A DNA stretch of 64,000 nt from a virus (IMGVR_UViG_3300045600_000078:1-64000), one strand, 5' to 3'. Positions 2,434-51,674 are shown, counted from the stretch's first letter. The notes: generated from the sequence alone by a model not told the origin. Program-made: numbers and translations.

Positions 2434-2435
2434 CC

Positions 2436-10012: not shown

Positions 10013-10040
10013 GGTAAAATGTCGAATAGAAAGGAGTACT

Positions 10041-33600: not shown

Positions 33601-34716
33601 GTTGCCTTGTTAGACATTGCCTCTATGCATCCGCATAGCCTCATAGCTTTAAACCTCTTTGGTGATGAGTATACTAAGAACTATGAGGATCTAGTGAACG
33701 CACGTATATTCATTAAGCACGGCGAGTTTGATGCTGCCAGGTCTATGCTGGGCGGAAAGCTTGCGCCATATTTGACTCACGAAGATCAGGCAAAGGCTTT
33801 GTCTAAGGCTCTTAAGATTCCTATCAATAGCGTTTATGGATTAACTTCGGCCAAGTTTGACAACAAGTTTAAGGATCCTCGTAATGTTGACAACATCGTT
33901 GCCAAGCGCGGGGCTCTCTTTATGATCGATCTTAAGCACGCTGTGCAAGAGCGAGGGTTTACAGTTGCCCATATTAAGACCGACTCAATTAAGATCCCGG
34001 ATGCTACCCCTGAGATTATTGAGTTTGTGTGCGAGATGGGTAAGAAGTTTGGCTATACGTTTGAGCATGAGGCTACCTACGAGAAGATGTGCTTAGTCAA
34101 TGATGCAGTTTATATTGCTAAGGAGTCTTTCGGAGACGAAGTTGGAAAGTGGACAGCGACTGGCGCGCAGTTTGCCGAGCCGTATGTGTTTAAGACGTTA
34201 TTTAGCCATGAGCCGATAGTTGATAAGGACTTCTGTGAGACAAAGGCTGTCACTGGTGATTCGTGTCTATATTTGGACATGAATGAAGGTCTCAACGATG
34301 TTTCTACTTACGAAACTGAAATGGCGAAGCGTAAGTATAACGCAAAGACTACTGGAAAGCTTCGTAAGCTTAATGCTGATCTCTCTGGATATTCTGATTC
34401 AGAACTTTCAGAGATGATAGCTAATGGCCACAGCTATTCGTTTGTTGGTAAAGCCGGGTCGTTTGTTCCAATCTCCTCAGGCAAGGGCGGAGGAATTCTA
34501 TATCGTGAGAAGGACGATGATTCTGGAAATCCGAAGTACTATGCCGCGGCTGGAACAAAGGGCTATCGTTGGCTTGAGAGCGAGGTTGTGAGACTGCAAG
34601 ATCGATTCGGAGACGTGGACAAGTCATATTTCACGTCACTGGTCGATGAAGCAGTCGAAGACATAAGTAAGTACGGAGACATTGAAGCGTTTCTGTGCGA
34701 TAGTGAAAAGGAGTAA
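30697..34716 (+). CDS. Replicase fusion: D5/SF3-type helicase + AEP prim-pol + family-B DNA polymerase (3'-5' exo + pol)
   Basis: Walker A: GEPGSGKST. AEP: VIDFDIHGDD, SGSGVHLHY. Exo I: FFDVEVFPN. Exo II: FNNRRYDNHIL. Exo III: YCVNDVVAT. Pol A: LDIASMHPHS. Pol B: KIPINSVYG. Pol C: IKTDSI. Confidence 0.9.
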   Translation: MQELDFVRILTKIDKTGIHITPKFVVKKSKDLMVRGRAFYAVWDEAKQLWSRDPFDVIRIVDEQLREKLDTFPKESEVKVSYLSNQDVWNEWVNYINRVPDNYQQLDSKVIFADTKIKREDFASKRLSYSLCDQDIPSYENLIGTLYDPLEKQKLEWAIGSILAGRSKDIQKFIVIYGEPGSGKSTIIHVIQELFDGYYTVFDAKAIGSFKNSFSLEPFKEDPLVALQHDGDLSQIEDNTVLNSVTSHEMMLINEKFKATYRSTINSFLFMGTNKPVKITDAKSGIIRRLIDVYPSGKTVSHDDYNKYMNQIKFELGGIAKHCLSVFNELGENYYDEYRAINMIGDTNDFYNFVVDCSESLMSNEGITLRGAWDLYKDYCEDAKVPYPFSKRRFKVELKNYFESFSEKTHIDGKQVRNYYKGFLVNKFYYDGKNDEETSSEAEIIGETKELNSTDDAKESEKLDSDSKKLVLGDPDTIVDANEMLADDESIFDREYSDQPAQYATKDGYPSQKWDNVTTTLKDIDTKRLHYVRVPENLIVIDFDIHGDDGSKDLDKNIEASQAWPKTYSELSKSGSGVHLHYIYDGDPTELSRVYDDNIEIKVFTGNSALRRKLTVFNNVPIAHISSGLPKRGVKVVSSGTISNEKALRGLIRRNLAKEIHPGTKPSIDFIKHILDEAYANKELHYDVTDLRPAILAFANNSTNHSDYCVKLVTEMHFQSDDAGSYSEPTDDELVFFDVEVFPNLFVIVWKGEGKECVKMINPTPIEVEDLVNHRLVGFNNRRYDNHILYARIMGYNNEQLYNLSTRIIGGSKNSSFVEAYNLSYADVLDFSSKKQSLKKFEIELGLHHQELDLPWDKPVPEDMWKTVADYCVNDVVATEATFKARHEDFVARQLLAAISGLSVNDTNRQHTEKILFGNDRHPQTKFIYTDLSTIFPGYKYENGKSSYRGENPGEGGYVYSEPGIYHNVALLDIASMHPHSLIALNLFGDEYTKNYEDLVNARIFIKHGEFDAARSMLGGKLAPYLTHEDQAKALSKALKIPINSVYGLTSAKFDNKFKDPRNVDNIVAKRGALFMIDLKHAVQERGFTVAHIKTDSIKIPDATPEIIEFVCEMGKKFGYTFEHEATYEKMCLVNDAVYIAKESFGDEVGKWTATGAQFAEPYVFKTLFSHEPIVDKDFCETKAVTGDSCLYLDMNEGLNDVSTYETEMAKRKYNAKTTGKLRKLNADLSGYSDSELSEMIANGHSYSFVGKAGSFVPISSGKGGGILYREKDDDSGNPKYYAAAGTKGYRWLESEVVRLQDRFGDVDKSYFTSLVDEAVEDISKYGDIEAFLCDSEKE

Positions 34717-37062: not shown

Positions 37063-37600
37063 TGGCAAGCACGCATTTTTAAGCGCTAGCCAGCATTCTT
37101 GGATTAACTATGATGAGGACAAGCTCATCAACACATATTCTAATTATTTGGCAAAGCAGAAGGGTACATTGCTTCATGACTTTGCGAGACGATGCATAAC
37201 ACTAAACCAGAATCTTCCTAAGTCGAATAAGACCTTAAATCTGTATGTCAATGATGCCATTGGCTATAAGATGACCCCCGAGCAAGTTTTGTACTATTCA
37301 CCAAACTGCTTTGGTACGGCTGACGCAATTTCATATTCTGAAAAGAACAAGTTTCTTAGAATCCATGACTTAAAGACTGGAATGACTCCAGCCTCTATGG
37401 ATCAGTTAGAGATATATTCTTCTCTCTTTTGTCTCGAGTATGGAATCAAGCCAGCCTCGATAGGAATCGAACTTAGGATCTACCAGTTTAATGAGGCCCA
37501 TATTTACGAGCCGCCACTTGACAATATTGTCCACATCATGGATAAGATTGTTGCGTTTGATCAGATACTAGAAGAACTAGAGTCAGAATCGGAGGTGTAA
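37034..37600 (+). CDS. PD-(D/E)XK nuclease (RecB/Cas4-like exonuclease fold)
   Basis: FLSASQ..., GTADAI...RIHDLKTG (D...D-x-K), ELRIYQ. GTG start 6 nt after GGAGGAGG. Confidence 0.5.
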   Translation: MNFNQHLELDGKHAFLSASQHSWINYDEDKLINTYSNYLAKQKGTLLHDFARRCITLNQNLPKSNKTLNLYVNDAIGYKMTPEQVLYYSPNCFGTADAISYSEKNKFLRIHDLKTGMTPASMDQLEIYSSLFCLEYGIKPASIGIELRIYQFNEAHIYEPPLDNIVHIMDKIVAFDQILEELESESEV

Positions 37601-37605
37601 TGTTC

Positions 37606-40314
37606 ATGAGCGACGAAGATCAAGAAGAGCGATATTTGATTCACTATGGTACGCCTAGGCACTCCGGGAGGTATCCTTGGGGCTCTGGTGAAAACCCATG
37701 CCAGCGTAATGGCAATTTCTTAAGTCGATATTCAGATCTTCATGAACAGGGCATCGCCGATAAGGACATAGCAAAAGCAATGGGTATGTCCCTTAACGAT
37801 CTTAGATCTCAGCGCCAGCTGGCAAAGGTTGAACAGAAGGCCTCCGATATTTCTACGGCTCGAAGGCTTAAGGATTCGGGAATGAGCATAACGGCTATTA
37901 GCCGTCAGATGGAAAAAAACGAATCGTCTATCAGATCCCTGCTCAATCCATCTAATAAAATGCGTAATGATCGGCTCATTACTACTCGAGACATGCTCAA
38001 AGATCAGATAGAAAAGAAAAAGTATCTTGATGTCGGCAAGGGCGTTGAGTACGATGTCGGAGTCAGCAAGCAAATGCTTGATAACGCTGTCAATACTTTA
38101 ACCCATGAAGGTTATCAGGTAATTAATCTTCAGGTTACCCAGCGAGGAACCGGTCTTAAGACTACCCGAAAGGTTCTTTGCCCTGAAGGAACCACACTTC
38201 AAGATGTTCGTGATCATCAAGCAGACATTGGCCTGATTAATGAACGTTGGAGTGATGATACACAATCATATTCTTCATTGGGTCTTAAGCCAATAAAGAG
38301 TATCTCGTCTAAGCGTGTAGCTATTCGCTATGGCGACGAAGGTGGAACCGATAGAGACGGCGTTATAGAGTTGCGCCGAGGAGTTGCTGGGCTTGACCTT
38401 GGTGATTCGAGGTATGCCCAGGTTCGAATTGGAGTTGATGGCACACATTATCTTAAGGGAATGGCTATCTATAGTGATAACGTTCCTAAGGGATACGATA
38501 TTCTGTTTAACACCAACAAGGCTTCAGGAACTCCTAAAAAAGACGTTCTTAAGTCAATGGAAACTAACAAGGACGGCTCCATAAACAAAGACAATCCATT
38601 CAAGACGTCTCTTAAGCTTGACGAGAGTCTTCATCCTGTGCAAAAGGGATATTTGAACGTTGTTCGCGAAGAGGGAGACTGGGGAAAGTGGAAGAAGACC
38701 CTTGCTTCCCAGATGCTGGCAAAGCAGCCGCAAGAGCTGATTAACAAACAGCTCAATCTTACATATTCTTCGAAACGATCTGAGCTTGATGAGATTAAGG
38801 CACTTACCAATCCCGCAGTTAAGAAGAAGCTTCTTATGAGCTTTGCTGATGGGTGCGATTCAGACGCTGACCATCTCTCTGCAGCAGCTATGCCTAGACA
38901 GGCAACTAAGGTTCTTTTGCCCCTCACGGATATTGCATCAAACAAGATCTATGCTCCGGATTATAGAGATGGCGAGTCGGTGGTTCTCATTCGATATCCT
39001 CACGGAGGAAAGTTTGAGATTCCAGAGTTGACGGTTGACAATCATAGTTCCAAAGAAGCTAAGAGTATATTTAAGGGTGGCGGGCAGCTTAAGGACGCCG
39101 TGGGTATTAATACGGATGTAGCTGCTCGTCTTTCTGGTGCCGACTTTGATGGCGACACGGTTCTTGTTATACCTAACTCGCGTAAAGAGATTAAAAGTTC
39201 TTCTCCGCTAAAGGGGCTTAAGGACTTCAATCCTTCGGAGGCATATCCTGGCTACGAGGGAATGAAGGTTCTTAGTGATAAGCAAAAGGGTAATGAAATG
39301 GGTAAGGTGACCAACCTTATTACAGACATGACCCTTAAGGGGGCTAGTGACGAAGAGCTAACTCGTGCTGTTAAGCATTCAATGGTTGTCATTGATGCCC
39401 ACAAACATAAGCTTAACTACAAGCAGTCCGAAAAAGACAATGGAATTAAAGAGCTTAAGGAAAAGTACCAAGGGCATTACGACGAGGATGGCAAGTTTAA
39501 GACCGGAGCCTCTACGGTTATATCTAGGGCGAAAGCTGAAACGCGTGTTCCCAAGCGTAGGATGAATTACAAGATAAATCCTACTACTGGTGAAAAAGAA
39601 TGGATGTATACCGGGGATAAAAAGGCTATCGTTAAAGTTGACAAGAACACCGGAGAAAAGAAAGTAGTTAAATACGAGCCGGTTCTTATGGTGTCAACTC
39701 AGATGGCTGAAACAAAAGATGCTAATACTCTTTCTTCGGGAACGGATCCAGAAAAGGCATACGCCAAGCACGCTAATAAGCTCAAGGCTTTAGCAAACGA
39801 AGCCCGTCTTACGGCTGTAAACACGAAGCCTATGGCTTGGTCTAGTTCAGCTAAGAAAACATATTCTGCTGAAGTGGAATCGCTTGATGCCAAGCTGGCC
39901 AATGCTAAACGTAAGGCTCCACTTGAACGTAAGGCTCAGAGTATAGCTAACCAACAGGTATCGATTGCCCGACAGGATAATCCAGACATGGAAAAAGAAG
40001 ATCTTAAGAAAGTCGGTACCCAAGCGTTGACTGCAGCACGAGCAAATCTTGGTATGAAAAAAGTTGATGTCGATATTACTCCTAAGGAATGGGAAGCCAT
40101 TCAGGCTGGGGCAATAAGCGATCACAAGCTTAGCGAGATATTAACACGTGCTGATTTGGATGTGGTTAAGGCTTATGCTACACCTCGAAACAAGAAGACT
40201 TTGACTGCGGCAAAGAAGGCTCAGATAAAGGCTGCATATTCTAGAGGCTTTACTCAGAGAGAGATTGCTGACATGTTTGGAATATCTCCTTCGACAGTAA
40301 ATGAAATAGTTTAA
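37606..40314 (+). CDS. Candidate single-polypeptide two-barrel (YonO-like) RNA polymerase with HTH modules
   Basis: VVLIRYPHGG...AVGINTDVAARLSGADFDGDTVLVIP aligns with the beta-prime DPBB ([10 protein letters not shown]...[26 protein letters not shown]). THYLKGMAI resembles the beta RHGxKG motif. C-terminal FTQREIADMFGISPSTVNEIV is HTH-like. Start at ATG 37606, 8 nt after GGAGGTG. Confidence 0.55.
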   Translation: MSDEDQEERYLIHYGTPRHSGRYPWGSGENPCQRNGNFLSRYSDLHEQGIADKDIAKAMGMSLNDLRSQRQLAKVEQKASDISTARRLKDSGMSITAISRQMEKNESSIRSLLNPSNKMRNDRLITTRDMLKDQIEKKKYLDVGKGVEYDVGVSKQMLDNAVNTLTHEGYQVINLQVTQRGTGLKTTRKVLCPEGTTLQDVRDHQADIGLINERWSDDTQSYSSLGLKPIKSISSKRVAIRYGDEGGTDRDGVIELRRGVAGLDLGDSRYAQVRIGVDGTHYLKGMAIYSDNVPKGYDILFNTNKASGTPKKDVLKSMETNKDGSINKDNPFKTSLKLDESLHPVQKGYLNVVREEGDWGKWKKTLASQMLAKQPQELINKQLNLTYSSKRSELDEIKALTNPAVKKKLLMSFADGCDSDADHLSAAAMPRQATKVLLPLTDIASNKIYAPDYRDGESVVLIRYPHGGKFEIPELTVDNHSSKEAKSIFKGGGQLKDAVGINTDVAARLSGADFDGDTVLVIPNSRKEIKSSSPLKGLKDFNPSEAYPGYEGMKVLSDKQKGNEMGKVTNLITDMTLKGASDEELTRAVKHSMVVIDAHKHKLNYKQSEKDNGIKELKEKYQGHYDEDGKFKTGASTVISRAKAETRVPKRRMNYKINPTTGEKEWMYTGDKKAIVKVDKNTGEKKVVKYEPVLMVSTQMAETKDANTLSSGTDPEKAYAKHANKLKALANEARLTAVNTKPMAWSSSAKKTYSAEVESLDAKLANAKRKAPLERKAQSIANQQVSIARQDNPDMEKEDLKKVGTQALTAARANLGMKKVDVDITPKEWEAIQAGAISDHKLSEILTRADLDVVKAYATPRNKKTLTAAKKAQIKAAYSRGFTQREIADMFGISPSTVNEIV

Positions 40315-40319
40315 TTATC

Positions 40320-40367
40320 AGAATAGCCACCTAGCTTCTATAGTGGGTGGCTATTCTATATTTTTTG
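40320..40367 (+). terminator. Strong intrinsic terminator after the RNAP-candidate gene
   Basis: AGAATAGCCACC ... GGTGGCTATTCT (12 bp) followed by ATATTTTTT. Confidence 0.7.
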
Positions 40368-40729
40368 ATTATTAGTTTTTACTTATACTTTGTTTATACT
40401 TTTTATCCCCGTCATAGCTATATTTTTTACTATATTAAAGATGTTATTATGTTTTATATTTAGCATGGGGCGATACCCCCACTGATAAGTATATTCTTAT
40501 AACAGAAAATTAGAAATAGGTTAATAAAAAGACTGCTACTATAATTTCGAAAAAATTTAATCAGTTTTTTACACGAGTTTTTAAATGGAAGTGTCCTAAA
40601 AAGAGTTGTCTTAAAAATTTGATTAAATAGTTTTGAGATTTTAGTTTTATCTACTTTCTAAGTTATACTTTTCTATATTTACTTCTTTTTTAGGTATAAA
40701 AAATGAATTTTATCAGGGGTTATTTGACA

Positions 40730-40777
40730 ATATAATATAAAAACGTGTGAATATAATATAAAATATAATATAAAAAT
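40730..40777. repeat. Three copies of TATAATATAAAA in the AT-rich control region
   Basis: Copies at 40731, 40752 and 40764; preceded by TTGACA at 40724. Confidence 0.6.
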
Positions 40778-40831
40778 GACGTTCTATCGTTCTTTTTGCT
40801 CCATATTAGCCAAAATATAGCCTAAAAGTAG

Positions 40832-41089
40832 GTGATAACGTTGATTACCAAGTATTTAAGCACTATAGATAACCCATTTGACCCAGCTACGGACTTTGAT
40901 AGGTGGTATGCCTATGATGAGCAGAAGGGGTATCACACATGCTCCTATCTAGCTAGGATAGCGCGTACATCCAGCTCTCTTACAGAGGCTGAGAACCAAC
41001 GGGCTATCAATGCCGCAATAGATGACATAGTCCGATTGAACATCAACGGAATGTACATCATGACCAGGGAAGGTACCGAGGATGAGTAG
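40832..41089 (+). CDS. Hypothetical protein (85 aa, GTG/TTG start), isolated inside the non-coding region
   Basis: ORF with IDNPFDPATDFDRWYAYDEQKGYHTCSYLARIA; weak RBS. Confidence 0.4.
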   Translation: MITLITKYLSTIDNPFDPATDFDRWYAYDEQKGYHTCSYLARIARTSSSLTEAENQRAINAAIDDIVRLNINGMYIMTREGTEDE

Positions 41090-41090
41090 G

Positions 41091-41132
41091 GTCCTACCCC
41101 CTACCCCTACCCCTGCCCACCCTACGGCCCTA
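41091..41132 (-). other. G-quadruplex-type tract (C-runs on +, G-runs on -)
   Basis: CCTACCCCCTACCCCTACCCCTGCCCACCCTACGGCCC: at least five runs of 3 or more C in an otherwise AT-rich region. Confidence 0.5.
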
Positions 41133-41324
41133 TGGGTAAGACTAAGAGAAGTAGTCTAACACTTTAGTTGTTAACAAATGTGATTACACAAAAGAGAATT
41201 GTTCTATCCGGCACACCCGACCCTTCCCCCTTGGCCCTCCTCACTAGCGAACTAATAAAAAGTTTCTAAAAACTTTTACAAAAAACTTTTACACAACAAG
41301 GACACATATTTGCCATAATTTTAT

Positions 41325-41390
41325 AAAAAAAATAAAAAAATAAAAAAATAAAAAAAAATAAATTTTTATTTTAAAAAAATATTACTGACA
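41325..41390. repeat. Phased A-tract block
   Basis: ATAAAAAAAATAAAAAAATAAAAAAATAAAAAAAAATAAATTTTTATTTTAAAAAAAT. Confidence 0.7.
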
Positions 41391-41424
41391 TATTAAAAAA
41401 ATAATATAAAATAGATCTAAAAAA

Positions 41425-41475
41425 GGGGGGGGAGGTGCCGGGGTATACCCCCCCTCCCTGCATCGCCGGCCTCCT
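41425..41475. repeat. GC-rich nested imperfect palindrome flanked by A-runs
   Basis: GGGGGGGGAGGTGCCGGGGTATACCCCCCCTCCCTGCATCGCCGGCCTCC. Inner perfect palindrome GGGGTATACCCC; outer GGAGG(T)GCCGG / CCGGCCTCC. Confidence 0.6.
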
Positions 41476-41500
41476 AAAAAAAGCTCCGGGGGTTATATTC

Positions 41501-41626
41501 TTAGAAGGTTTTCTGAGAGATGTGGATAGTTAAACTGACCACACAGTAAAAGTTTCCCACTTTCCTCTCTTTTCATGGGTAAAAACTATATTAAAACTAG
41601 TCCACATCTCTCAGAAAGTCTTCTAA
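41501..41626 (+). repeat. 26-bp inverted repeat enclosing 74 nt (long stem-loop)
   Basis: TTAGAAGGTTTTCTGAGAGATGTGGA (41501-41526) against TCCACATCTCTCAGAAAGTCTTCTAA (41601-41626). The two differences are G.U-compatible only in + strand RNA. Confidence 0.7.
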
Positions 41627-41732
41627 TAGTGTTTCAATCTAATAGCATATTCTTCAAAACTAGGCTAATAGTATTGAAAACAAATGGTGTTCTTTTCAAA
41701 GAGTAATTAATTTGTACAGAAAGGAAACGATT

Positions 41733-41840
41733 ATGGCTGAAACTAATGTTCCCGAGCACATTACAGATCACATTGATGGCCCACAGGATGGCGACGGCCC
41801 GGATGATGTCGAGGTGAAGCAAGATGGGACAAGCAAATGA
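41733..41840 (+). CDS. Small acidic leader ORF (35 aa) overlapping the start of the second CHAP lysin; paralog of 2436..2555
   Basis: MAETNVPEHITDHIDGPQDGDGPDDVEVKQDGTSK; RBS GAAAGGAA. Confidence 0.4.
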   Translation: MAETNVPEHITDHIDGPQDGDGPDDVEVKQDGTSK

Positions 41841-42756
41841 CCTTTTAAATGCCGAACGAGGCGAACTTGGATATTCTCGTTGGAATGATCCCGAGGCTGG
41901 TACTAAGTATGGTCGTTGGTATGCTTCAATGAGTGGCGATTCTTACTATGGCGAAAGCGGAGTTCCTTATTGCGCCATGTTTCAGTCTTGGTGTCTAGCT
42001 CAGTCTGGTGTAACTGCTTCTGGTATGCCTGGCGCATATTGTCCTTCGATTCTTTCGGCGGCTCGATCCGACGGGGCTCTTGTTTACAACGAGGATGCTC
42101 AGCCCGGAGACTTACTTCTGTTTGACTGGAATGGTGATGGCAGCCCAGACCATATAGGTTGCTGCGAAGTTAACCATCCGAGTCAATCATATATGGAAAC
42201 CATTGAAGGCAACACCAACAACGGATGTGTTGCTCGACGTACTCGTTCGTATTCTAACATCATCGGAGTAATCCGTCCGACATATTCAGTTGTTCCTGAT
42301 CATCGCCATTCCGCGGTGCAGCTCTATGATGGAAACTCAACCGATGCCCAGAGGTTCAGTCGTATCAATCATGACGATGGATCACAGTCGTATATTTTCA
42401 TTAGCTGTGGTCTCGCTCTTGATGTGTGCAATGGTCGTGGTGAAGCGGGAACCCCAATTCAGGCCTATGAACAAAACGGAACTGCGGCTCAAGGTTGGAT
42501 CATGGAAGATGTTGAGAACGCATCCATCTACAAGCCTGGAAATGCGGTTCCCGTTGTTCTTCGTTCCGCGCTCGATCGTAATCTTGTTCTTGATTGCATC
42601 AGTGGAGGGAAAGTTGACGGTACTCCTCTTCAGCTTTGGCCGTACAATGGCACCGCTGCTCAGCAGTGGGCAATAGTCGATCATGGCGATGGAAGTATTA
42701 CATTAATCAACGTCGGGTCTAGTAAAGCGCTCGACGTTGTCGGTGGAGGAAATTAG
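41824..42756 (+). CDS. CHAP peptidoglycan hydrolase + ricin-type (QxW)3 lectin domain
   Basis: The CHAP domain is highly similar to 2545..4071 (GYSRWNDPEAGTKYGRWY, YCAMFQSWC, PDHIGCCE). Lectin: DAQRF, AAQGW, AAQQW. Confidence 0.85.
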   Translation: MGQANDLLNAERGELGYSRWNDPEAGTKYGRWYASMSGDSYYGESGVPYCAMFQSWCLAQSGVTASGMPGAYCPSILSAARSDGALVYNEDAQPGDLLLFDWNGDGSPDHIGCCEVNHPSQSYMETIEGNTNNGCVARRTRSYSNIIGVIRPTYSVVPDHRHSAVQLYDGNSTDAQRFSRINHDDGSQSYIFISCGLALDVCNGRGEAGTPIQAYEQNGTAAQGWIMEDVENASIYKPGNAVPVVLRSALDRNLVLDCISGGKVDGTPLQLWPYNGTAAQQWAIVDHGDGSITLINVGSSKALDVVGGGN

Positions 42757-42916
42757 ATAAATTATTTTTTTATGATCTATAAAAAAGCATACATTAGATA
42801 AGCAGATTTCTAATTTCAAGAAAGAAGCCTCAAAGAGTATTGCGGACGTGCAAAGCTTCTTATCTAATTTGTTTAAGTAGTTACTACGAAAAGAGAGTAA
42901 GAAGGTGACCAACCTA

Positions 42917-43258
42917 ATGGCAAGAGTACGAAAGGCATCTTCCACTGACGAGCCAATGTCTTCGGCTCAGACTCCTAAGGACCAAGAAGATGTAATGATC
43001 AACTTGGCGATGAAACAGGCTGAGGAACAACTCCGAGAAGGAAAGGCTCCAGCGCAAGTTGTCGTTCATTTCTTGAAATTAGGTTCTACTCGAGAGCGGC
43101 TTGAGCAAGAAGATCTTGAGCAAAAGGTTAGGCTCGAGCAAGCTAAGACTGAATCTCTTCAGTCTCAGAAGCGTATTGAAGATCTATATTCAAATGCACT
43201 CAAGGCTATGCGCAATTACAGCGGCCAAGATGAAGCGCAAGATGACGAAGATGTATAG
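42917..43258 (+). CDS. Coiled-coil protein at the head of the packaging module (small-terminase candidate by position only)
   Basis: RBS AGAAGGTGA; 113 aa; helical, charged; immediately upstream of HNH. Confidence 0.3.
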   Translation: MARVRKASSTDEPMSSAQTPKDQEDVMINLAMKQAEEQLREGKAPAQVVVHFLKLGSTRERLEQEDLEQKVRLEQAKTESLQSQKRIEDLYSNALKAMRNYSGQDEAQDDEDV

Positions 43259-43673: not shown

Positions 43674-44066
43674 ATGGAAAGCATCCTGACTACTATTAAG
43701 AAAATGCTTGGTATAGAAGAGTCGTTTACCAATTTTGATGATGAGCTTATCGTATACATTAATGGAGTCTTTACTACTTTATCGCAATTGGGAATAGGTG
43801 CTCCTAACTACATTATTACAGGGAAAGCAAATACGTGGACCGAGTTCGTTAAAGACGCTAAGAATCTCGAAGCCGTTAAGACTTATATTTATCTTAAGAC
43901 TCGACTTGTGTTTGATCCTCCGGCGTCATCAACAGTTATCACGGCTATTGAAAAACAGATCTCAGAAATAGAATGGCGACTTTGGCAAAATGCGGAAGAT
44001 CCAAAAGTCAATGCTGAAATAGCTAAGATGGCCGAACTTACTGCCGAAACGAATGATGAATCATGA
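43674..44066 (+). CDS. Hypothetical protein, possibly head-tail connector-like
   Basis: IKKMLGI...FDDELIVYINGVF..LSQLG...VKTYIYLKTRLVFDPP resembles gp6/QLRG-type connector N-termini; from recollection only. Confidence 0.3.
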   Translation: MESILTTIKKMLGIEESFTNFDDELIVYINGVFTTLSQLGIGAPNYIITGKANTWTEFVKDAKNLEAVKTYIYLKTRLVFDPPASSTVITAIEKQISEIEWRLWQNAEDPKVNAEIAKMAELTAETNDES

Positions 44067-44377
44067 AGAAACTATTTATTTCTCAGGCTATGTCTGGGAA
44101 AAGTGATAAAGAACTTATGGTCGAACGTGATTCCGCGTTAGTCTATGTCGAGTACAATCTTGGCGAAGAGTATGAAGAAATCGATTCTTCTTTTCCTGAT
44201 ATTGTTGATGAAGTGTTGACTGGAGATCAGCAGTCAGCTTTTGGTTTAGGAAAAGAAATAGAGTTATTGGCAGCTTCCGACGCTGCTTATTTTTGTACTG
44301 GATGGTATAAGAATCGCGGATGTCAAATAGAGCATCTTGTATGTGAAAAGTATCATATACCTATTGTATATGATTAA
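44063..44377 (+). CDS. DUF4406 / nucleoside 2-deoxyribosyltransferase-like protein
   Basis: MKKLFISQAMSGK...LAASDAAYFCTGWYKNRGCQIEH pattern (P-loop-less Rossmann, GW..S.G...E). Confidence 0.4.
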   Translation: MKKLFISQAMSGKSDKELMVERDSALVYVEYNLGEEYEEIDSSFPDIVDEVLTGDQQSAFGLGKEIELLAASDAAYFCTGWYKNRGCQIEHLVCEKYHIPIVYD

Positions 44378-44391
44378 GGAGGTGATATTAT

Positions 44392-45324
44392 ATGGCCGAA
44401 AACGAAGAGTATCTTGAACATCATGGAATTCTTGGAATGAAGTGGGGGGTTCGTCGATCGGATGCTCAGCTGGGATACAAGAAGTCTGATTCAACGTATG
44501 TTAAAGGCTTAAAGAAGAATATTAAAGCTGAAGGTCTTATCTCCGGGGTTCTTGATACCAAAGTTACAGGAACGAATAAGGGGAAATCAAAGACTAACAT
44601 TAAGTATAAGCAGGCAGTTAATAGGCAAAAGCTTAGTGAAAAGAAAGACGACATAAAGTCTTTGAATGCTGGGGTAGATCCAAAGAAGCGATCTGATAAC
44701 GAGTCAAAGTTATATGATGCTGTTGCTTTACGTATCGGTGGTACCTCTAGTCGTGGACGTGGCCCAGCTTCGACTCTTTCTAATGATGAATTAAAAAGTG
44801 CTGTTGAACGAATGTCTATGGAGAAGCGGTATCGTGAGCTTCAAGCTGATGATGCGCAGGCTCATATGTCTAAGGGTCAGCGTTTCATGAATACCGCCGG
44901 GGAAGTTCTTGGCCAGTCAATCAAGACTGCTTCTCAGCAATATTTGACTAAGCAAATTGGAAACATGCTTAACGGCGGGGCTTCTGATTCGCAATCTAAT
45001 GGTAATTCAAACAACAATGCTCGTACTACTGCACAGTCAATGGCTGATGATTTTGTTAAGGGAAACAAGAGCGACGTTTCCACGGCAAAAGAATTTGGGC
45101 AAATTCTTAAGAAAGCCGACAATAATTATGGTGCGTATCAGTCAAAGATGGGCGAAAAGATAGACGATTATAATAATACTCCGGCAAACAAAACGACGGC
45201 ATATAAGACTGGCCAGATTATAAAGCGGGGGACTGATAAACTGGCGAATTACAAGTCTAATATGAATACGAGCATGAATTCGAATGAGCTCGATGGTTAT
45301 AAGGCTAAGCATCTAAAGAAGTAG
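44392..45324 (+). CDS. HHG-x-GMKWG N-terminal-motif protein, paralog 1 (310 aa)
   Basis: MAENEEYLEHHGILGMKWGVRR...; the rest is low-complexity and basic. RBS AAGGAGGTG. Confidence 0.6.
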   Translation: MAENEEYLEHHGILGMKWGVRRSDAQLGYKKSDSTYVKGLKKNIKAEGLISGVLDTKVTGTNKGKSKTNIKYKQAVNRQKLSEKKDDIKSLNAGVDPKKRSDNESKLYDAVALRIGGTSSRGRGPASTLSNDELKSAVERMSMEKRYRELQADDAQAHMSKGQRFMNTAGEVLGQSIKTASQQYLTKQIGNMLNGGASDSQSNGNSNNNARTTAQSMADDFVKGNKSDVSTAKEFGQILKKADNNYGAYQSKMGEKIDDYNNTPANKTTAYKTGQIIKRGTDKLANYKSNMNTSMNSNELDGYKAKHLKK

Positions 45325-45340
45325 ATATTTGGAGGCGACT

Positions 45341-47089
45341 ATGTCATTATCCAATACGGCAGTTCCTAAGTATTATGGAGAATTTAGGGATTCTGTGCTT
45401 AAAGGGGATATGCCTGTAAATGATGAAGTCGCTATGGAAATGAATCGTATAGATTCATTGATCAATAATCCAGGTATATTTTACGATGATCGAGCTATGG
45501 ACGGTTTTGTTAATTTCTGTGAAAAAGAATTAACACTTACTGATGGCGAAGATCTTCACTTATTAGATTCTTTTAAGCTTTGGGCTGAAGAGATATTTGG
45601 CTGGTATTATTTTGTTGAAAGATCTGTGTATGTTCCGGACGAAGATAATCATGGCGGGCATTACGAGTTAAAGATGATTAAGAAACGGCTTATCAACAAG
45701 CAGTATCTTATTATCTCTCGTGGCGCGGCTAAGTCAATGTATGACTCATGCATACAGAATTATTTTCTCAATGTCGATACCTCAACTACTCATCAGATAA
45801 CAACAGCCCCAACGTTAAAGCAGGCCGATGAAGTTCTATCCCCGATAAGAACAGCAATCACGAGAGCCAGAGGCCCGTTATTCAAGTTCTTAACTGAAGG
45901 ATCGATGCAGAATACCACAGGATCCAGGGCAAACCGGGTTAAGCTGTCATCTACTAAAAAGGGCATTGAAAACTTTTTAACGGGGTCACTTCTAGAAACT
46001 CGGCCAATGTCAATAGACAAGCTTCAGGGGCTTCGATGTAAGATTGCTACTGTAGACGAGTGGCTTTCTGGAGATGTCCGTGAAGATGTTATTGGCGCAA
46101 TCGAGCAAGGCGCGTCTAAGCTTGATGACTATCTTATTGTAGCTACAAGCTCAGAAGGTACTGTTCGTAATGGGTCTGGCGATACCATCAAAATGGAATT
46201 GATGTCAATTCTAAAGGGCGAGTATGTAAACCCCCATGTATCTATTTGGTATTATCGACTTGATGATGCCAAAGAGATTAACGATCCTTCTCTTTGGCTT
46301 AAGGCGAACCCTAATCTTGGAAAGACCGTTACGTATGAAACGTATCAGCTTGACGTTGATCGAGCTGAGAAAGCCCCGGCGGCTAGGAATGATATTTTAG
46401 CAAAGAGGTTTGGTATTCCTATGGAGGGCTATACGTACTTCTTTACGTATGATGAGACTCTGCCGACTCGGCGTAAGCGGGACTATTGGCAGATGCCTTG
46501 TTCTCTTGGGGCGGATCTTTCGCAAGGGGATGACTTCTGTGCATTCACATTCCTATTTCCTCTTGGCGGAGAAGATTTTGGAATAAAGACCAGAAGCTAT
46601 ATAACTTCGTTCACGCTTATGCAATTACCGATGGCTATGCGAAATAAGTATGACGAATTTATTAATGAAGGATCGCTTATAGTTATGGATGGTACAGTTC
46701 TTGATATGACCAACGTGTACAATGATGTTGATCAGCATATTGTTGATAGGCAGTATGATGTACGAAGTTTTGGCTACGATCCATATAATGCCAAAGAGTT
46801 TGTTGAGCGGTGGTCTACTGAGAACAGCCCATATGGTGTTGAAAAAGTTATGCAGGGGTCAAAGACGGAATCCGTCCCTCTCGGAGAATTGAAGAAACTC
46901 GCCGAGCAAGGGAAACTGATATTTGATGAAAATCTTATGTCGTTTACTATGGGAAACTGTATAACTCTTGAAGACAATAACGGAAATCGAAAGCTTCTCA
47001 AGGAACGCCGAGATAAGAAGATAGATAATGTTTCGGCGCTTATGGATGCTTATGTTGCTTATAAGCGGCAGAAGGAAGCTTTTGAATGA
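45341..47089 (+). CDS. terL: Terminase large subunit
   Basis: ATPase: LIISRGAAKSMY (Walker A-like), ATVDEW (Walker B). Nuclease: LGADLSQGDDFCAF, GYDPYNA, KIDNVSALMDAY. Start at ATG 45341 after GGAGG. Confidence 0.9.
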   Translation: MSLSNTAVPKYYGEFRDSVLKGDMPVNDEVAMEMNRIDSLINNPGIFYDDRAMDGFVNFCEKELTLTDGEDLHLLDSFKLWAEEIFGWYYFVERSVYVPDEDNHGGHYELKMIKKRLINKQYLIISRGAAKSMYDSCIQNYFLNVDTSTTHQITTAPTLKQADEVLSPIRTAITRARGPLFKFLTEGSMQNTTGSRANRVKLSSTKKGIENFLTGSLLETRPMSIDKLQGLRCKIATVDEWLSGDVREDVIGAIEQGASKLDDYLIVATSSEGTVRNGSGDTIKMELMSILKGEYVNPHVSIWYYRLDDAKEINDPSLWLKANPNLGKTVTYETYQLDVDRAEKAPAARNDILAKRFGIPMEGYTYFFTYDETLPTRRKRDYWQMPCSLGADLSQGDDFCAFTFLFPLGGEDFGIKTRSYITSFTLMQLPMAMRNKYDEFINEGSLIVMDGTVLDMTNVYNDVDQHIVDRQYDVRSFGYDPYNAKEFVERWSTENSPYGVEKVMQGSKTESVPLGELKKLAEQGKLIFDENLMSFTMGNCITLEDNNGNRKLLKERRDKKIDNVSALMDAYVAYKRQKEAFE

Positions 47090-47114
47090 TATTTATTAAG
47101 AATGGAGGTGCTAT

Positions 47115-47546
47115 ATGACTAACGAAGAGTATCTAATGCACCATGGGATTATTGGAATGAAGTGGGGTGTGCATAAGATAAAGACCTCCACAGATTATGC
47201 TGATCTTTCAAATAAAAAAGATAAGCTTACGTCTCAGAACGAAAAGCTTAATAACAAAATTTATAAAATGACCAACAAATCGAATAAGATGGCTATGAAA
47301 GGCGCTAAGTTTAATTATAAGGCGTCAAAGGATACTTATAAACATGATGGAGAAAACACGGATAAGTATACCTATAAGTCTAATAAATACACGGTGAAGT
47401 CGGCAAAGCTCGATAACAAGGTTTCCAAGGCACGTCGAACTATACAGCAGAATACTGTATTTATTAATGCTATGAATTCACGAATGGGCGAACTTAATTC
47501 GGGTAATGTTTCTGCTGGATCGAATTATATTAATTCTTGTCTGTAG
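47115..47546 (+). CDS. HHG-x-GMKWG N-terminal-motif protein, paralog 2 (143 aa)
   Basis: MTNEEYLMHHGIIGMKWGVHK...; Lys-rich body; RBS TGGAGGTG. Confidence 0.6.
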   Translation: MTNEEYLMHHGIIGMKWGVHKIKTSTDYADLSNKKDKLTSQNEKLNNKIYKMTNKSNKMAMKGAKFNYKASKDTYKHDGENTDKYTYKSNKYTVKSAKLDNKVSKARRTIQQNTVFINAMNSRMGELNSGNVSAGSNYINSCL

Positions 47547-47555
47547 ATGTTTTAA

Positions 47556-47603
47556 ATGAATGACTATTTGATGCACCATGGAATTATAATACTTAGGGGA
47601 TAG
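47556..47603 (+). pseudogene. Truncated remnant of the HHG-motif N-terminus (15 codons)
   Basis: ATG AAT GAC TAT TTG ATG CAC CAT GGA ATT ... = MNDYLMHHGIIILRG*. Confidence 0.45.
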
Positions 47604-47606
47604 CGT

Positions 47607-48023
47607 ATGAACGAAGATTATTTAGCACATCATGGAGTTCTTGGAATGAAGTGGGGAGTTCGAAAAGCAAGCAGGGCATATGCCAATGCCGAAACAGCTT
47701 CTGATAAAGCCAATGCTAAAAAAAAGATGGTTAGCGAATTATCGAAAGATAGTAAAAAGTTAAATAAACTTAATGCCAAAGCTAGTAAAATGATAGGTAA
47801 GACAGTTAACAAGAAGTACGGGGTTTTCGGATCCCAATCAAAATATGAAAAGTATAAGGCCCGGGCAGATAAAAAAGCTTATAAAGCAAAAAAATGGTAC
47901 GATAATATGGAGACCCAATATAAGCAGCAAAATATTGTTGATATTTCTGATAGTGATAAAAAACTTGGAGAAAAGTATATAAATTATTTCAGGCAAGCTT
48001 CTGAAATTTCAAAATCCTTCTAA
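47607..48023 (+). CDS. HHG-x-GMKWG N-terminal-motif protein, paralog 3 (138 aa)
   Basis: MNEDYLAHHGVLGMKWGVRK...; Lys-rich body. Confidence 0.6.
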   Translation: MNEDYLAHHGVLGMKWGVRKASRAYANAETASDKANAKKKMVSELSKDSKKLNKLNAKASKMIGKTVNKKYGVFGSQSKYEKYKARADKKAYKAKKWYDNMETQYKQQNIVDISDSDKKLGEKYINYFRQASEISKSF

Positions 48024-48077
48024 TTAATTAATAGCCAAGTCTTAGACTTATATTTATCATTCGGAAGGGAGGTGCTT

Positions 48078-49397
48078 ATGGGTTTAGTATCAAGAATGAA
48101 AAATGCATGGAATGCTTTTACAGATACGGATAGTTCTAGAACTTTTTCGTATACATTGGGTACCTCTTCTTCTCGTCCTGATTTTAGAAATCGAGGGCAT
48201 ATCGGAAACGAACGTTCTATTGTGAATTCTGTTTACAATAGAATCGCAGTTGATGTCTCTCAGATAAATTTAGAGCATGCACGTGTTGATGGTAATAATC
48301 GATATTTGGAACCGATTGATTCTGGGTTAAACTATGCTTTAACTCAGGAAGCTAACATTGACCAGACAGGAAAGTCTCTTATACAGGACGCTGTTATGTC
48401 GATGTTTGACGAGGGAACGGTTGCCATTGTTCCTGTTGATACTGTTGGGGATCCTCTTATGGGATCATATGATATTAAGACGGTTCGAGTAGGTCGAATA
48501 GTTCAGTGGTATCCTCGTCATGTTCAGATAGAGCTTTATAACGATCGAACAGGAAACAAGGAAACGGTAACACTTCCTAAAGAGATTGTGGCTATAGTTC
48601 AGAATCCATTCTATTCAATCATGAATGAGCCAAACTCAACTTTGCAGCGTCTTATACATAAGCTCAACCTTCTTGACTATATTGATGATCAAAGTGGTTC
48701 TGGAAAGATGAATCTTATCGTCCAGCTTCCATATCAGTTAAAGTCGGAAATGCAAAAGACCCGTGCCGCTACTAGGCAAGCAGAGATTGAGGCTCAGTTA
48801 AAAGATTCGAAGTTTGGAATCGCTTATATTGATGCCACTGAGCATATTACTCAGTTGAATCGTCCCGTTGAGAACAATCTGTTAGATCAGATTAAGAATC
48901 TTACTGACATGCTTTATAGTCAATTGGGGCTCACCACTGATATTATGAATGGTACCGCTAGTGAAGCCGTAATGAAGAATTACTATAAGCGTACAGTCAA
49001 TACAATACTGGATTCGTTTCAAGACGAGATTCAAAGGAAGTTTCTTACTAAGACTGCCCGATCTCAAGGACAGGCGATTGTATATTTCAATGATGTATTT
49101 AGCTTAATTCCTGCAACTGATATTGCTAATATGGCGGATGCTTTTGCGCGAAACGAGATACTCACATCTAATGAACTTAGATCTATTATCGGATTTAAGC
49201 CTAGTTCTGACCCTAAGGCAGATACACTTACCAACTCTAATTTGTATCCTGCTGACGGTTCGGACGGAGGACAGCCTAGTTCTCCTTCAGCAGCAAATTC
49301 GGTATCACAGGAGGATAGCAGCTCCGAGTTAACGGATATTGTGGGCGACAAATCTAAGTTAATTGATACTGCGAACGAAATAACCAATGCTCAGTGA
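48078..49397 (+). CDS. Portal protein
   Basis: Called by position (after TerL, before protease/capsid) and size (439 aa). C-terminal SNELRSIIGFKP-type segment. Start at ATG 48078 after GGGAGGTG. Confidence 0.6.
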   Translation: MGLVSRMKNAWNAFTDTDSSRTFSYTLGTSSSRPDFRNRGHIGNERSIVNSVYNRIAVDVSQINLEHARVDGNNRYLEPIDSGLNYALTQEANIDQTGKSLIQDAVMSMFDEGTVAIVPVDTVGDPLMGSYDIKTVRVGRIVQWYPRHVQIELYNDRTGNKETVTLPKEIVAIVQNPFYSIMNEPNSTLQRLIHKLNLLDYIDDQSGSGKMNLIVQLPYQLKSEMQKTRAATRQAEIEAQLKDSKFGIAYIDATEHITQLNRPVENNLLDQIKNLTDMLYSQLGLTTDIMNGTASEAVMKNYYKRTVNTILDSFQDEIQRKFLTKTARSQGQAIVYFNDVFSLIPATDIANMADAFARNEILTSNELRSIIGFKPSSDPKADTLTNSNLYPADGSDGGQPSSPSAANSVSQEDSSSELTDIVGDKSKLIDTANEITNAQ

Positions 49398-49547
49398 TAT
49401 TTTCTAGTAGTATAGATTTGATTTGACTTTGATGCATATCTTATACAAAAATTCAAAGGTATGCTCTATATGAAAATCTTTCTATTCTATTCTGGATTAT
49501 TATATTTTTTTTTGTAATACAAAAAATAATTGATTGGAGGTTTAAGT

Positions 49548-51674
49548 ATGAAGTATGATTTTGGCGGATATGCTACCAAGAACGATCTTCTTTGCTCTGA
49601 CGGGCGAGTGATTCGTCGTGATGCTTTTAAGGCGTGCGATGGAAAGCGTGTCCCACTCGTGTGGAATCATATGCACGATGCTCCAGAGAATGTTCTTGGC
49701 CACGCAGATCTTCAGAACCGTGCTGATGGTGTATATGCGTATTGTTCTTTTAATGATACGGATAAGGCTGCGGCAGCAAAGGAAGCTGTCCGAAACGGGG
49801 ACATTTGTTCTCTTTCTATTTATGCCAATCACCTTAAGCAAACCGGTCATGACGTAATTCATGGCGCTATTCGTGAAGTTAGCCTTGTTCTTGCCGGGGC
49901 TAACCCTGGAGCTGAAATTGAGCAGGTCGCTATTCAGCATAGTGACGATAGCTACGAGACTCTTTCTGACGAAGCAGTTATAAAGTCTTGGGTGAATCTC
50001 GATAGTGACGAAGTTGAGTTTGCTCATTCCGACGTTCAGGATGATACTAAGAAAGAAGATAATACTACGGATACTTCAAATACTAATGTGGAGGCACAGT
50101 CTAATAAGTCGTCCGATTCGTCGATGTCGATTGAGGACTTTGTCAATTCCCTCACGGATGATCAGAAGAAGCTTCTTGCTCAGCTGATCAAGAAGGATAC
50201 GGCTTCTAAGCCGAATCAAAATGAGACCACATCTAAGGCTGCTGCTCCTAGTGCCGCCAAGTGTGCTCCAGCAAAGCCAGATGCTGAGCTTGCCCAGTCT
50301 GACATTCCGGCGAATTTTAAGAAAGATTCAAACAAGGAGGATCCCAGCATGAACAATGCTACTACCCCGACCACGCCTGCTGCTTCTGCGCAGGACAACA
50401 GTGACAAGACCGTTCAGGACATTTATGATGCCATGACCGACGATCAGAAGACCGTTGTTCAGTATCTCGTTGGTCTTGCTCTTCAGGAAAATGGTGGCGA
50501 CGATTCGAAGGACAAGGGTTCTGACGAGGTCGCCCAGTCTGATATTTATGGGGGAAATGATATGCAGCATAACGTTTTTGATTCCGAGGGCAATGTTCTT
50601 TCGCATTCCGATATTGAGGGCATTAAGGATCAGCTCTTCTCTGATGTTATGAATGATGTTAAGCATGGCGCTTCGTTCAAGGAGTCTGTCCTTGCTCATG
50701 CTGAGGGCGACTATGGCATCCAGAATGTTTCGGTTCTTTTCCCTGATGCTCAGGATGTTGCTGATGGTCCTCAGTTCATGGATCAGCAGGCCGAGTGGGT
50801 CAATGTCATCATGAACGGTACCAAGCATGTTCCGTTCGCCAAGTTCAAGACGATCATCGCGGACATCACCGCTGCCGATGCTCGTGCCAAGGGCTATATC
50901 AAGGGCAAGCAGAAGGTCAACGAGTTCTTCAAGGTGGCTAAGCGTGAGACCACGCCTCAGACCGTGTACAAGAAGCAGAAGATGGATCGTGACGACATCG
51001 TCGACATCACTGACTTCGATGTTGTGAATTGGCTTCGTGGGGAGATGCGCATCAAGCTCAACGAGGAGCTTGGCCGTGCCTTCCTGATTGGTGATGGCCG
51101 CAGCGCCGAGTCCCCTGATAAGATCGATGAGGAGCACATTCGTCCTATCGCTAGCGATGTCGATGTGTTTAACGTGAAGGTTAACCTTTCGCAGAACACT
51201 GATTACGCTAAGATGATCGAAGAGATTGCACTTGCCCACAGCTATTATCGTGGCAACGGTACCCCCATGTTCTTCACTTCGCCTACCACCCATACCAAGA
51301 TGCTTTGGGTGAAGGATACCACCGGCCGTCGTCTGTATGCTTCCGAAGATGAGCTCTGCGCTGCTCTTCGCGTTTCGCAGATTGTCGACGTTCCTGACAT
51401 GGAGTCCGCGACTCATGTCGATGGCACCGATACCTATGACATCCTTGGTATCAAGGTTAACCCCAGCGATTACACGGTTGGCGCTGACAAGGGCGGCGAG
51501 ATCAACAACTTTGATGATTTCGACATTGACTACAACCAGTACAAGTATCTCATGGAGACTCGTTGCTCCGCTGGTCTGACCATTCCTTGGTCTGCTGAGA
51601 CGATTCGCTTTGACACCACCAAGGCCCCTGAGAAGGAGACCATCAGCAACGGCTCGATCACTGACGTTCATTAG
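49548..51674 (+). CDS. Fused prohead protease (HK97/S78-like) + acidic linker + HK97-fold major capsid protein
   Basis: N-terminus: VPLVWNHMHD..VLGHADL...SLSIYAN...IREVSLVLAGANPGAEI. Linker about 200 aa rich in D/K/S/T/A. C-terminus: ADITAADARAKGYIKGKQK..RETTPQTVYKKQKMDRDDIVDITDFDVVNWLRGEMRIKLNEELGRAFLIGDGR. Confidence 0.8.
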   Translation: MKYDFGGYATKNDLLCSDGRVIRRDAFKACDGKRVPLVWNHMHDAPENVLGHADLQNRADGVYAYCSFNDTDKAAAAKEAVRNGDICSLSIYANHLKQTGHDVIHGAIREVSLVLAGANPGAEIEQVAIQHSDDSYETLSDEAVIKSWVNLDSDEVEFAHSDVQDDTKKEDNTTDTSNTNVEAQSNKSSDSSMSIEDFVNSLTDDQKKLLAQLIKKDTASKPNQNETTSKAAAPSAAKCAPAKPDAELAQSDIPANFKKDSNKEDPSMNNATTPTTPAASAQDNSDKTVQDIYDAMTDDQKTVVQYLVGLALQENGGDDSKDKGSDEVAQSDIYGGNDMQHNVFDSEGNVLSHSDIEGIKDQLFSDVMNDVKHGASFKESVLAHAEGDYGIQNVSVLFPDAQDVADGPQFMDQQAEWVNVIMNGTKHVPFAKFKTIIADITAADARAKGYIKGKQKVNEFFKVAKRETTPQTVYKKQKMDRDDIVDITDFDVVNWLRGEMRIKLNEELGRAFLIGDGRSAESPDKIDEEHIRPIASDVDVFNVKVNLSQNTDYAKMIEEIALAHSYYRGNGTPMFFTSPTTHTKMLWVKDTTGRRLYASEDELCAALRVSQIVDVPDMESATHVDGTDTYDILGIKVNPSDYTVGADKGGEINNFDDFDIDYNQYKYLMETRCSAGLTIPWSAETIRFDTTKAPEKETISNGSITDVH

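Follow-up and report, generated by a model that had tools for sequence, protein, structure and literature searches.

The sequence analysed here, referred to throughout as the window, is a stretch of 64,000 nucleotides of viral DNA (IMGVR_UViG_3300045600_000078:1-64000), drawn from a 68-kb JGI metagenome contig, that belongs to a 1706-like / actinophage "BI-supercluster" siphovirus. Its head module contains three genes, all on the + strand, whose products share an N-terminal peptide tag of about 20 residues with the form (D/E)YLxHHGxxGMKWG, corresponding to the Pfam family DUF7211 (PF23847). The first of these, D1 (44392..45324; 310 aa, isoelectric point (pI) 9.7), lies directly upstream of the gene for the large terminase, TerL (45329..47089, + strand; PF20441 E = 1.6e-34, phrog_9). 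D2 (47115..47546; 143 aa, pI 9.8) is found between TerL and the portal gene (48072..49397, + strand; PF04860, phrog_12), and D3 (47607..48023; 138 aa, pI 9.9) directly upstream of the latter. The N-termini read MAENEEYLEHHGILGMKWGVRR in D1, MTNEEYLMHHGIIGMKWGVHK in D2 and MNEDYLAHHGVLGMKWGVRK in D3. The tag itself occupies residues 5-22 of D1 (44404..44457, + strand; EEYLEHHGILGMKWGVRR), 4-21 of D2 (47124-47177) and 3-20 of D3 (47613-47666).

All three proteins pass the Pfam DUF7211 model, with scores of 40, 35.2 and 42 bits, respectively, against a gathering cut-off of 27. They also match a profile derived from 119 independent metagenomic tags with E values of 1e-13 to 1e-16 (search of the 1751 six-frame open reading frames (ORFs) of the window). 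Chance or low-complexity similarity is thereby ruled out as the source of the tag. A secretion signal was considered and rejected by inspection, the tag being hydrophilic, devoid of a hydrophobic core and located outside the lysis module.

A further, truncated copy of the tag lies between D2 and D3 (47556..47603, + strand). It consists of 15 codons, MNDYLMHHGIIILRG followed by a stop, and retains YLMHHGII before breaking off inside the motif and running into the ribosome-binding site of D3. Shine-Dalgarno sequences are present for D1, D2 and D3, and none was seen for the remnant, whose DNA is identical in a second sample (L093). Its score against DUF7211, 24 bits compared to the cut-off of 27, is reached only if the remnant is artificially doubled. 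It is probably the 5' stump of a deleted tagged (cargo) gene.

The original prediction, made from the sequence alone, had described this signature on three proteins and one remnant, the full-length genes flanking TerL and standing upstream of the portal gene, with bodies unrelated to each other. The N-termini read as claimed, and D1 does lie directly upstream of TerL, with D2, the remnant and D3 between TerL and portal. Beyond the tag, the bodies of D1-D3 are indeed unrelated (BLASTP E = 2.1 and 4.6). Searches with whole proteins were correspondingly poor: since conservation is confined to the tag, tblastn of complete D1 and D3 against GenBank phages returned almost nothing and short tag queries succeeded, and a full-length D1 search yielded only 30 weak homologues. 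At the DNA level, the tag-coding segments of D1 and D3 are identical at approximately 33 of 35 bases, from which it appears that tags probably also serve as recombination points for the gain and loss of cargo genes.

D1 represents a conserved 'pre-TerL' member of the tagged set, with positional orthologues in Mudcat gp7, ReqiPoco6 gp015 and phage 1706 orf7. These form a sub-family (phrog_7021, matched by D1 with E = 8e-15) in which the tag is followed by a basic linker and then by a second motif, LSxxELxxxxxR[LM]x[LM]ExxY, located in D1 at residues 129-151 (44776..44844, + strand; LSNDELKSAVERMSMEKRYRELQ). The second motif is kept in the alignment of D1 homologues, in Mudcat gp7, ReqiPoco6 gp015 and 1706 orf7, and in orthologues bearing the other form of the tag described below. 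An AlphaFold2 model of D1 is elongated and composed of long helices (mean pLDDT 64, pTM 0.24), and is too poor for a fold search. Its only high-confidence helix is that of the second motif (pLDDT around 92), and the tag appears as low-confidence coil. A predicted coil attached to a helical body would fit a linear motif that folds on a partner.

The DUF7211 tag across related phages

For comparison, loci were collected from IMG/VR (80) and from bacterial genomes (77), ORFs were called in each, and the canonical tag profile was scanned over them. The bacterial-genome loci are mostly from Clostridia and include complete Hungatella chromosomes, so that some members of the tagged lineage are prophages. 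The scan gave 392 tagged ORFs, 222 in the first set and 170 in the second, and in the first set every one (222/222) lies on the same strand as the head genes. The tag begins at or before residue 25 in 358 of the 392 proteins (91%; 200/222 and 158/170 in the two sets). In the remaining proteins, about 9%, it is internal or present in two or three copies, so the strictly N-terminal location originally proposed does not hold. Because of these internal and repeated tags, we consider that the tag behaves as a docking module and not as a classical leader peptide.

A logo from 176 non-redundant tags reads [DN][DNE][YEF]LxH[HY]G[IV][KL]GMKWG[VI]R[RK], in which L, H, G, G, M, K, W, G and R are conserved at 89-100%. 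Among GenBank phages, a 24-residue consensus tag is found at 913 places in 237 records, a figure that may be compared to the 250 records with a homologue of the RNA polymerase (RNAP) encoded in the window. The counts per genus are equal for the two: Arthrobacter 95, Gordonia 55, Streptomyces 54, Curtobacterium 7, Rhodococcus 4, Microbacterium 4 and Faecalibacterium 2. A co-occurrence of tag and polymerase across phage genomes, which the original prediction proposed to look for, is borne out by these counts. Overall, at E <= 1, at least 2,756 proteins in the database match DUF7211. Pfam lists the family without a function, and the literature search produced no phage paper that deals with DUF7211 or the GMKWG motif.

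Gene order around the tag recurs in about 250 GenBank phages and is nearly invariant across the IMG/VR and bacterial-genome loci, where it runs: an ORF of phrog_4259, an HNH endonuclease, a head-tail connector, one to three tagged genes, TerL, zero to eight tagged genes, the portal, and a fusion of prohead protease and major capsid protein (protease::MCP). The window has the HNH gene among its head-module neighbours too, and its connector (Phage_connect_2; 43674..44066, + strand; PF24829 E = 6e-35, phrog_4247) forms the conserved left border of the tagged-gene island. Wherever the flank of a locus extends far enough, the RNAP gene is found 3-5 kb upstream of the module. Some 95% of tagged genes lie inside the head module, and the tag is confined to one phage lineage, which nevertheless spans Actinobacteria and Firmicutes hosts. 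An extreme case is ReqiPoco6, where six consecutive tagged genes (gp018-023) are placed between TerL and portal.

Departures from this order were few. In one viral locus (L048, 9049-10960) two tagged genes come after genes for tail proteins, and neither TerL nor portal nor connector is present in the 10 kb to each side. A 175-kb contig (L010) encodes at 2127-3083, some 13 kb upstream of the connector, a 318-aa protein of DUF5662-DUF7211-Ntox50 architecture; this phage also has the usual tagged genes beside TerL, and a further tagged gene at 9971-10144 outside the head module. Two loci from bacterial assemblies (L008, 8819-10159; L009, 1111-2451) consist of a connector, two small ORFs and a 52-aa truncated DUF7211 ORF abutted by ABC-transporter and GntR genes, an arrangement that suggests a retained fragment of a decayed prophage. 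Several pre-TerL proteins, those of L054 1325-4252, L006 2501-3889 and L001 2820-3827, bear two or three tags each: in the 975-aa protein of L054 they stand at residues 7, 232 and 808, and two copies are present in 1706 orf7 and in Mudcat gp7. These suggest either fused adjacent cargo genes or a polyprotein cut at its tags.

The sequences downstream of the tag are unrelated among tagged proteins, which share a basic character (median pI 9.9; 94% above 9). Most have no recognisable domain. Among 120 non-redundant tagged proteins, Pfam identified Gln_amidase, a glutamine-deamidase papain-fold toxin, in five, GNAT in three, 2'-5' RNA ligase / LigT phosphoesterase in three and Ntox50 in two. The fusions came to light through the ORFs called in the retrieved loci, an initial profile search having given only very short top-scoring proteins. 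In ReqiPoco6 gp015 a 2H phosphoesterase domain is N-terminal and the tag internal. Such domains are of the effector type, like those of injected phage proteins. None of the 123 proteins examined with Pfam (D1-D3 and the 120 tagged relatives) contains a Phage_Mu_F domain. The island between connector and portal would then be a swappable cargo cassette, represented in the window by three small basic proteins and one deleted stump.

The two-barrel RNA polymerase and its N-terminus

Upstream of the head module, the window encodes a 904-aa RNAP (37600..40314, + strand) which matches phrog_4291 ('RNA-dependent RNA polymerase') with E = 0. The Pfam RNA-dependent RNA polymerase (RdRP) model matches over the catalytic loop with E = 0.0017, its 17.6 bits falling below the cut-off of 23.8. 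The catalytic DFDGD lies at residues 515-519 (39142-39156), and a C-terminal helix-turn-helix (HTH; matches to HTH_23 and Sigma70_r4_2) resembles region 4 of sigma-70. The DxDGD loop and the phrog_4291 homology together place the protein among the two-barrel, YonO/RdRP-like RNAPs; a sequence search of the PDB with it gave no match. Hosts of phages with RNAP homologues include Arthrobacter, Gordonia, Streptomyces, Rhodococcus, Curtobacterium, Microbacterium, Lactococcus (1706-like), Faecalibacterium and Bifidobacterium. The phage group has been described by Koert et al. (10.1101/842583), in passages that present the YonO/RdRP-like polymerase as its signature, with HHpred support for the orthologues; those same passages deal with the conserved head module alongside the polymerase and make no mention of the tag.

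The start region of the RNAP reads MFMSDEDQEERYLIHYGTPRHSGRYPWGSG. The start originally assigned corresponds to the second ATG, at 37606, the ORF as defined here opening at 37600. Near this N-terminus lies a variant of the tag, EERYLIHYGTPRHSGRYPWGSGENPCQR (37624..37707, + strand), related to DUF7211. Its family form, LxHYG[MT]PR[RH]SGRYPWGSG[ED]NPYQ, is conserved at the polymerase N-terminus in 251 GenBank phage records, once per record, with counts for Arthrobacter, Gordonia, Streptomyces and Curtobacterium that match those of the canonical tag.

The likeness between this region and the tag had been proposed from the window sequence, and on that sequence taken alone it lacks statistical significance. 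Residues 1-40 of the RNAP do not match Pfam DUF7211 even at E <= 10, and against the canonical tag profile the protein obtains E = 0.45, which is not significant, yet makes it the best non-canonical ORF in the window. At the level of the family the proposal is well founded. DUF7211 proteins make up 1.9% of the 11,664 ORFs that were searched with a profile of RNAP N-termini only. The top of the ranking is taken by the RNAPs and three island proteins with the RNAP-type tag, and the next 38 places all belong to canonical DUF7211 proteins. Alignment of the RNAP-type to the canonical tags with hhalign gave a probability of 92.9% (P = 3.6e-7) over their common first half, ED.L.HYG.

Proteins bridging the two forms were also found. 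In a human-gut contig (MT835616) both proteins flanking TerL have the RNAP-type instead of the canonical tag, as does one island protein of another locus (L051). When the 40-residue RNAP N-terminus was compared by phmmer with 1.84 billion representatives, 846 clusters (50% identity) were matched at E <= 0.001, and the best matches were not polymerases. They were instead proteins of 350-600 aa with two RNAP-type tags and a second motif which, being the same as that of D1, identifies them as pre-TerL family orthologues. Among the bridging proteins, P0185 passes Pfam DUF7211 at 30.4 bits and P0247 has a Gln_amidase toxin. The sequence comparisons therefore strongly support, at family level, the view that the RNAP N-terminus is a diverged DUF7211. 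Given that the profile ranking, the hhalign result and the bridging and island proteins all link the RNAP-type tag to the canonical one, we regard the two as interchangeable versions of one module.

Possible roles of the tag

We propose, with a probability of roughly 0.55, that the tag is a module for incorporation into the capsid, borne by internal or ejected proteins of 1706-like / BI-supercluster siphoviruses. Several features point this way: a short, mostly N-terminal peptide, predicted as coil; cargo that is diverse, basic and in part effector-like; the position of the genes in the head module; restriction to one head lineage that extends over two bacterial phyla; and the GenBank annotation of phage 1706 orf7, the two-tag orthologue, as 'structural protein'. 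Related annotations exist for ReqiPoco6 gp020, called 'virion structural protein' by similarity to 1706 orf7, and for phrog_35934, which carries the same description and matches the tag. The targeting or ejection role first suggested is thus supported indirectly by synteny, lineage restriction, N-terminal bias, cargo and annotation. More tentatively, we envisage two classes of address, in which the canonical GMKWG tag would load exchangeable basic effectors and the SGRYPWGSG variant would load the RNAP, to be injected with the DNA and to make early transcription independent of the host enzyme; this we consider possible rather than probable. The presence of the diverged tag on the RNAP is what leads to the prediction of a virion-delivered polymerase.

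A route may be outlined. The tagged proteins would be synthesised along with the head proteins, and the tag would bind a conserved component of the procapsid interior. The portal is one candidate for that component, the acidic linker within the protease::MCP fusion another. In the window this fusion (49530..51674, + strand, with the likely start ATG at 49548; PF04586 and PF05065, phrog_3270) yields a product of 708-714 aa that joins an S78 prohead protease to an HK97-type capsid protein. Between the two lies a low-complexity, strongly acidic, scaffold-like linker of some 270 residues (approximately residues 130-400), and the fusion as a whole has a pI of 4.65 with charges arranged in blocks. 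The fusion is both a candidate docking partner and a candidate processing enzyme of the tag, and no separate scaffold gene was identified in the window. The charge contrast between the basic tagged proteins and the acidic linker suggests that the basic bodies could be retained on this acidic scaffold and later on DNA. At infection, the proteins would exit together with the DNA, and by the same logic the RNAP would be loaded and injected to start transcription.

Several observations weigh against this proposal. Direct virion evidence comes solely from the annotation of 1706 orf7; the literature searched contained no virion proteomics or transcription study of this phage group. The RNAP of phage 1706 itself (orf75) is annotated as a polymerase and not as a structural protein, and YonO, the known homologue from SPbeta, is to our knowledge not an enzyme of the virion. 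In related linear genomes the distance from the RNAP gene to one genome end is no more than a few hundred bases; if that end enters first, the RNAP could be made early simply through transcription by the host enzyme. The tags that are internal or repeated sit uneasily with a comparison to the T4 signal, which is strictly N-terminal. Finally, the synteny is clearly broken in one of the 80 viral loci (L048), and truncated or tag-only ORFs resembling the remnant occur in other loci too.

An alternative, which we judge unlikely, is that the tagged proteins are assembly factors and not delivered cargo, the tag docking scaffold-like or portal-accessory proteins whose basic helical bodies would act as extra scaffold or as DNA-condensing filler in a lineage with protease and capsid protein fused. 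The genes do occupy the classical scaffold and small terminase positions beside TerL and portal, and nearly every genome has at least one pre-TerL member with the second motif. Moreover, the bodies are modelled as long helices without a globular fold, their basic charge faces the acidic linker of the capsid fusion, and the annotation of 1706 orf7 as structural would suit an assembly factor. What such a role leaves unexplained are the fusions to toxin, GNAT and phosphoesterase domains, the variable number of copies (0 to 8) between TerL and portal, and the appearance of the tag on an RNA polymerase.

It is also rather doubtful that the tag recognises a partner outside the capsid, be it a host factor, a non-structural phage protein (a chaperone or the polymerase itself) or another tag, so as to gather these proteins in the cytoplasm as accessory factors of transcription or takeover. 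The RNAP is always tagged, tagged genes co-occur one-to-one with the RNAP lineage, the tag may be internal or repeated, and some tagged genes lie outside the head module (those of L010, at 2127-3083 and 9971-10144, and of L048), all of which such a partner would accommodate. However, the tag is equally one-to-one with the lineage of TerL, portal and capsid, in whose module the 95% of tagged genes reside, and one tagged orthologue is annotated as a virion protein. Its retention in phages of both Actinobacteria and Firmicutes favours a phage-encoded over a host partner.

The tag might instead be mainly a recognition or cleavage site for the S78 prohead protease, a propeptide holding toxic or basic proteins inert until maturation and not a targeting determinant. 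This strikes us as improbable. The protease is fused to the capsid protein and hence inside the procapsid, proteins with two or three tags, such as the 975-aa example in L054, resemble polyproteins, and the T4 targeting sequence is cut off by the prohead protease. Yet cutting inside the head presupposes targeting to it, so that any proteolytic removal of the tag would complement loading into the head without replacing it, and in ReqiPoco6 gp015 a cut at the internal tag would part the N-terminal enzyme domain from the conserved C-terminal part. Highly improbable is a nucleic-acid-level element (recombination hotspot, translation signal or RNA structure) with incidental peptide conservation: the tag DNA of D1 and D3 is near-identical and the truncated stumps do show recombination or deletion at tags, but only 27 of 97 DNA columns are invariant across four tag regions and their flanks, as against eight residues (L, H, G, GMKWG) invariant in eight tags from three phages, the logo positions listed above remain 89-100% conserved over 176 tags, and the same peptide is found in phages of Lactococcus and Streptomyces, genera of contrasting GC content.

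Incorporation into the capsid, our favoured interpretation, can be compared with several known systems. The capsid-targeting sequence (CTS) of T4, present on IPI-III and Alt, is around 10 residues long, strictly N-terminal and removed by the gp21 protease. Like DUF7211, it is a short common N-terminal peptide on diverse, mostly basic proteins. DUF7211 differs in being twice that length, at about 20 residues, and in some proteins internal or repeated, and it shows no obvious similarity in sequence to the T4 signal. Unlike T4, the phage studied here is a siphovirus that infects Gram-positive bacteria; it has a protease::capsid fusion, and no gene for a separate scaffold was identified. T4 internal proteins are loaded into the prohead scaffolding core and injected with the DNA, and constitute a variable anti-defence arsenal (PMC3012670). 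[quoted passage not shown] An N-terminal signal into a head for which no separate scaffold is identified would thus be common to P1 and to the present phage. The Dar proteins have no recognisable consensus tag (PMC9024508), whereas here one clear consensus is present on every cargo, and no homology links the two systems. One feature expected of targeting of the T4 and P1 type, a short peptide common to otherwise unrelated proteins encoded with head genes, was found here.

Head proteins of the MuF / SPP1 gp7 type are carriers fused to polymorphic toxin domains. They resemble DUF7211 proteins in combining a head-module carrier with interchangeable toxins (here Gln_amidase and Ntox50), the carrier element being a 20-residue motif in our case compared to a Phage_Mu_F domain of around 100 residues in theirs. 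Encapsulins are cellular nanocompartments whose cargo-loading peptides are usually C-terminal. These too are short linear peptides on diverse cargo that dock inside an HK97-fold shell, and would be the closest mechanistic analogue should the partner of the tag prove to be the capsid protein; they show no homology to the tag, which is mostly N-terminal.

For the polymerase, the comparison is with the virion-packaged RNAPs of N4 (gp50) and of crAss-like phages (phi14:2 gp66), single-chain phage-encoded enzymes for early genes, as the present one would be if injected. The N4 virion RNAP is T7-like. The RNAP of the window shares with the crAss-like enzyme the two-barrel, RdRP-like architecture and the DxDGD loop, and differs from both in its size of 904 aa, its sigma-r4-like HTH, its siphovirus context and a packaging that is only predicted. 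We know of no common short tag on N4 or crAss cargo.

A capsid-targeting peptide with injected cargo is, then, a known kind of system; the consensus tag, the cargo island and the link to a two-barrel RNAP are, as far as we can tell, new. Were the proposal correct, it would assign a function to the widespread DUF7211 and identify the cargo island in a large lineage of phages found across Actinobacteria and gut Clostridia. It makes the testable prediction that the signature two-barrel RNAP is a virion enzyme, which bears on how infection starts and on the evasion of defences that rely on host transcription, and virion RNAPs would no longer be restricted to N4-like, crAss-like and jumbo phages. 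In addition, the tag, at about 20 residues, would be a portable means of delivering proteins into Actinobacteria and Clostridia, and of packaging enzymes or reporters into phage heads for Gram-positive hosts as is already done with the T4 and P1 tags in E. coli.

Other features of the window

At the left edge of the head module, a conserved 117-aa ORF (42905-43258, + strand) belongs to phrog_4259, where no function is assigned, and is found before the HNH gene in every case. It is a candidate for the small terminase, a role for which databases give no support. D1 was also considered as the small terminase and rejected, as the annotation of its orthologue is that of a virion protein and fusions to enzymes are common in the tagged family.

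The gap between connector and D1 is occupied by a 104-aa ORF (44063-44377, + strand) resembling nucleoside 2-deoxyribosyltransferases (phrog_355 E = 1.2e-10, with a weak match to Pfam DUF4406). Homologues are found in only two of the other loci, which number around 90 (L028 and L053), and the ORF therefore looks like an inserted accessory gene.

A scan of 34-50 kb for promoters and terminators found sites no more numerous than in shuffled sequence, and is for that reason uninformative on when the RNAP or the tagged genes are expressed. The 1.5 kb between the RNAP gene and the endolysin gene (40315-41823) contain no ORF of 90 aa or more. Since, in related linear genomes, a few hundred bases separate the end of the RNAP gene from that of the record, this gap may hold the physical genome ends or a cos region. 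The endolysin itself (41824-42756, + strand) matches phrog_21825 over its N-terminal half, and the repeated AAQxW-type motifs of the C-terminal half possibly indicate a lectin-like cell-wall-binding domain. Further upstream, at 30697-34716 (+ strand), a 1339-aa ORF combines an N-terminal part of the D5/DUF5906 primase-helicase type with a DNA-polymerase part (phrog_4210 E = 0).

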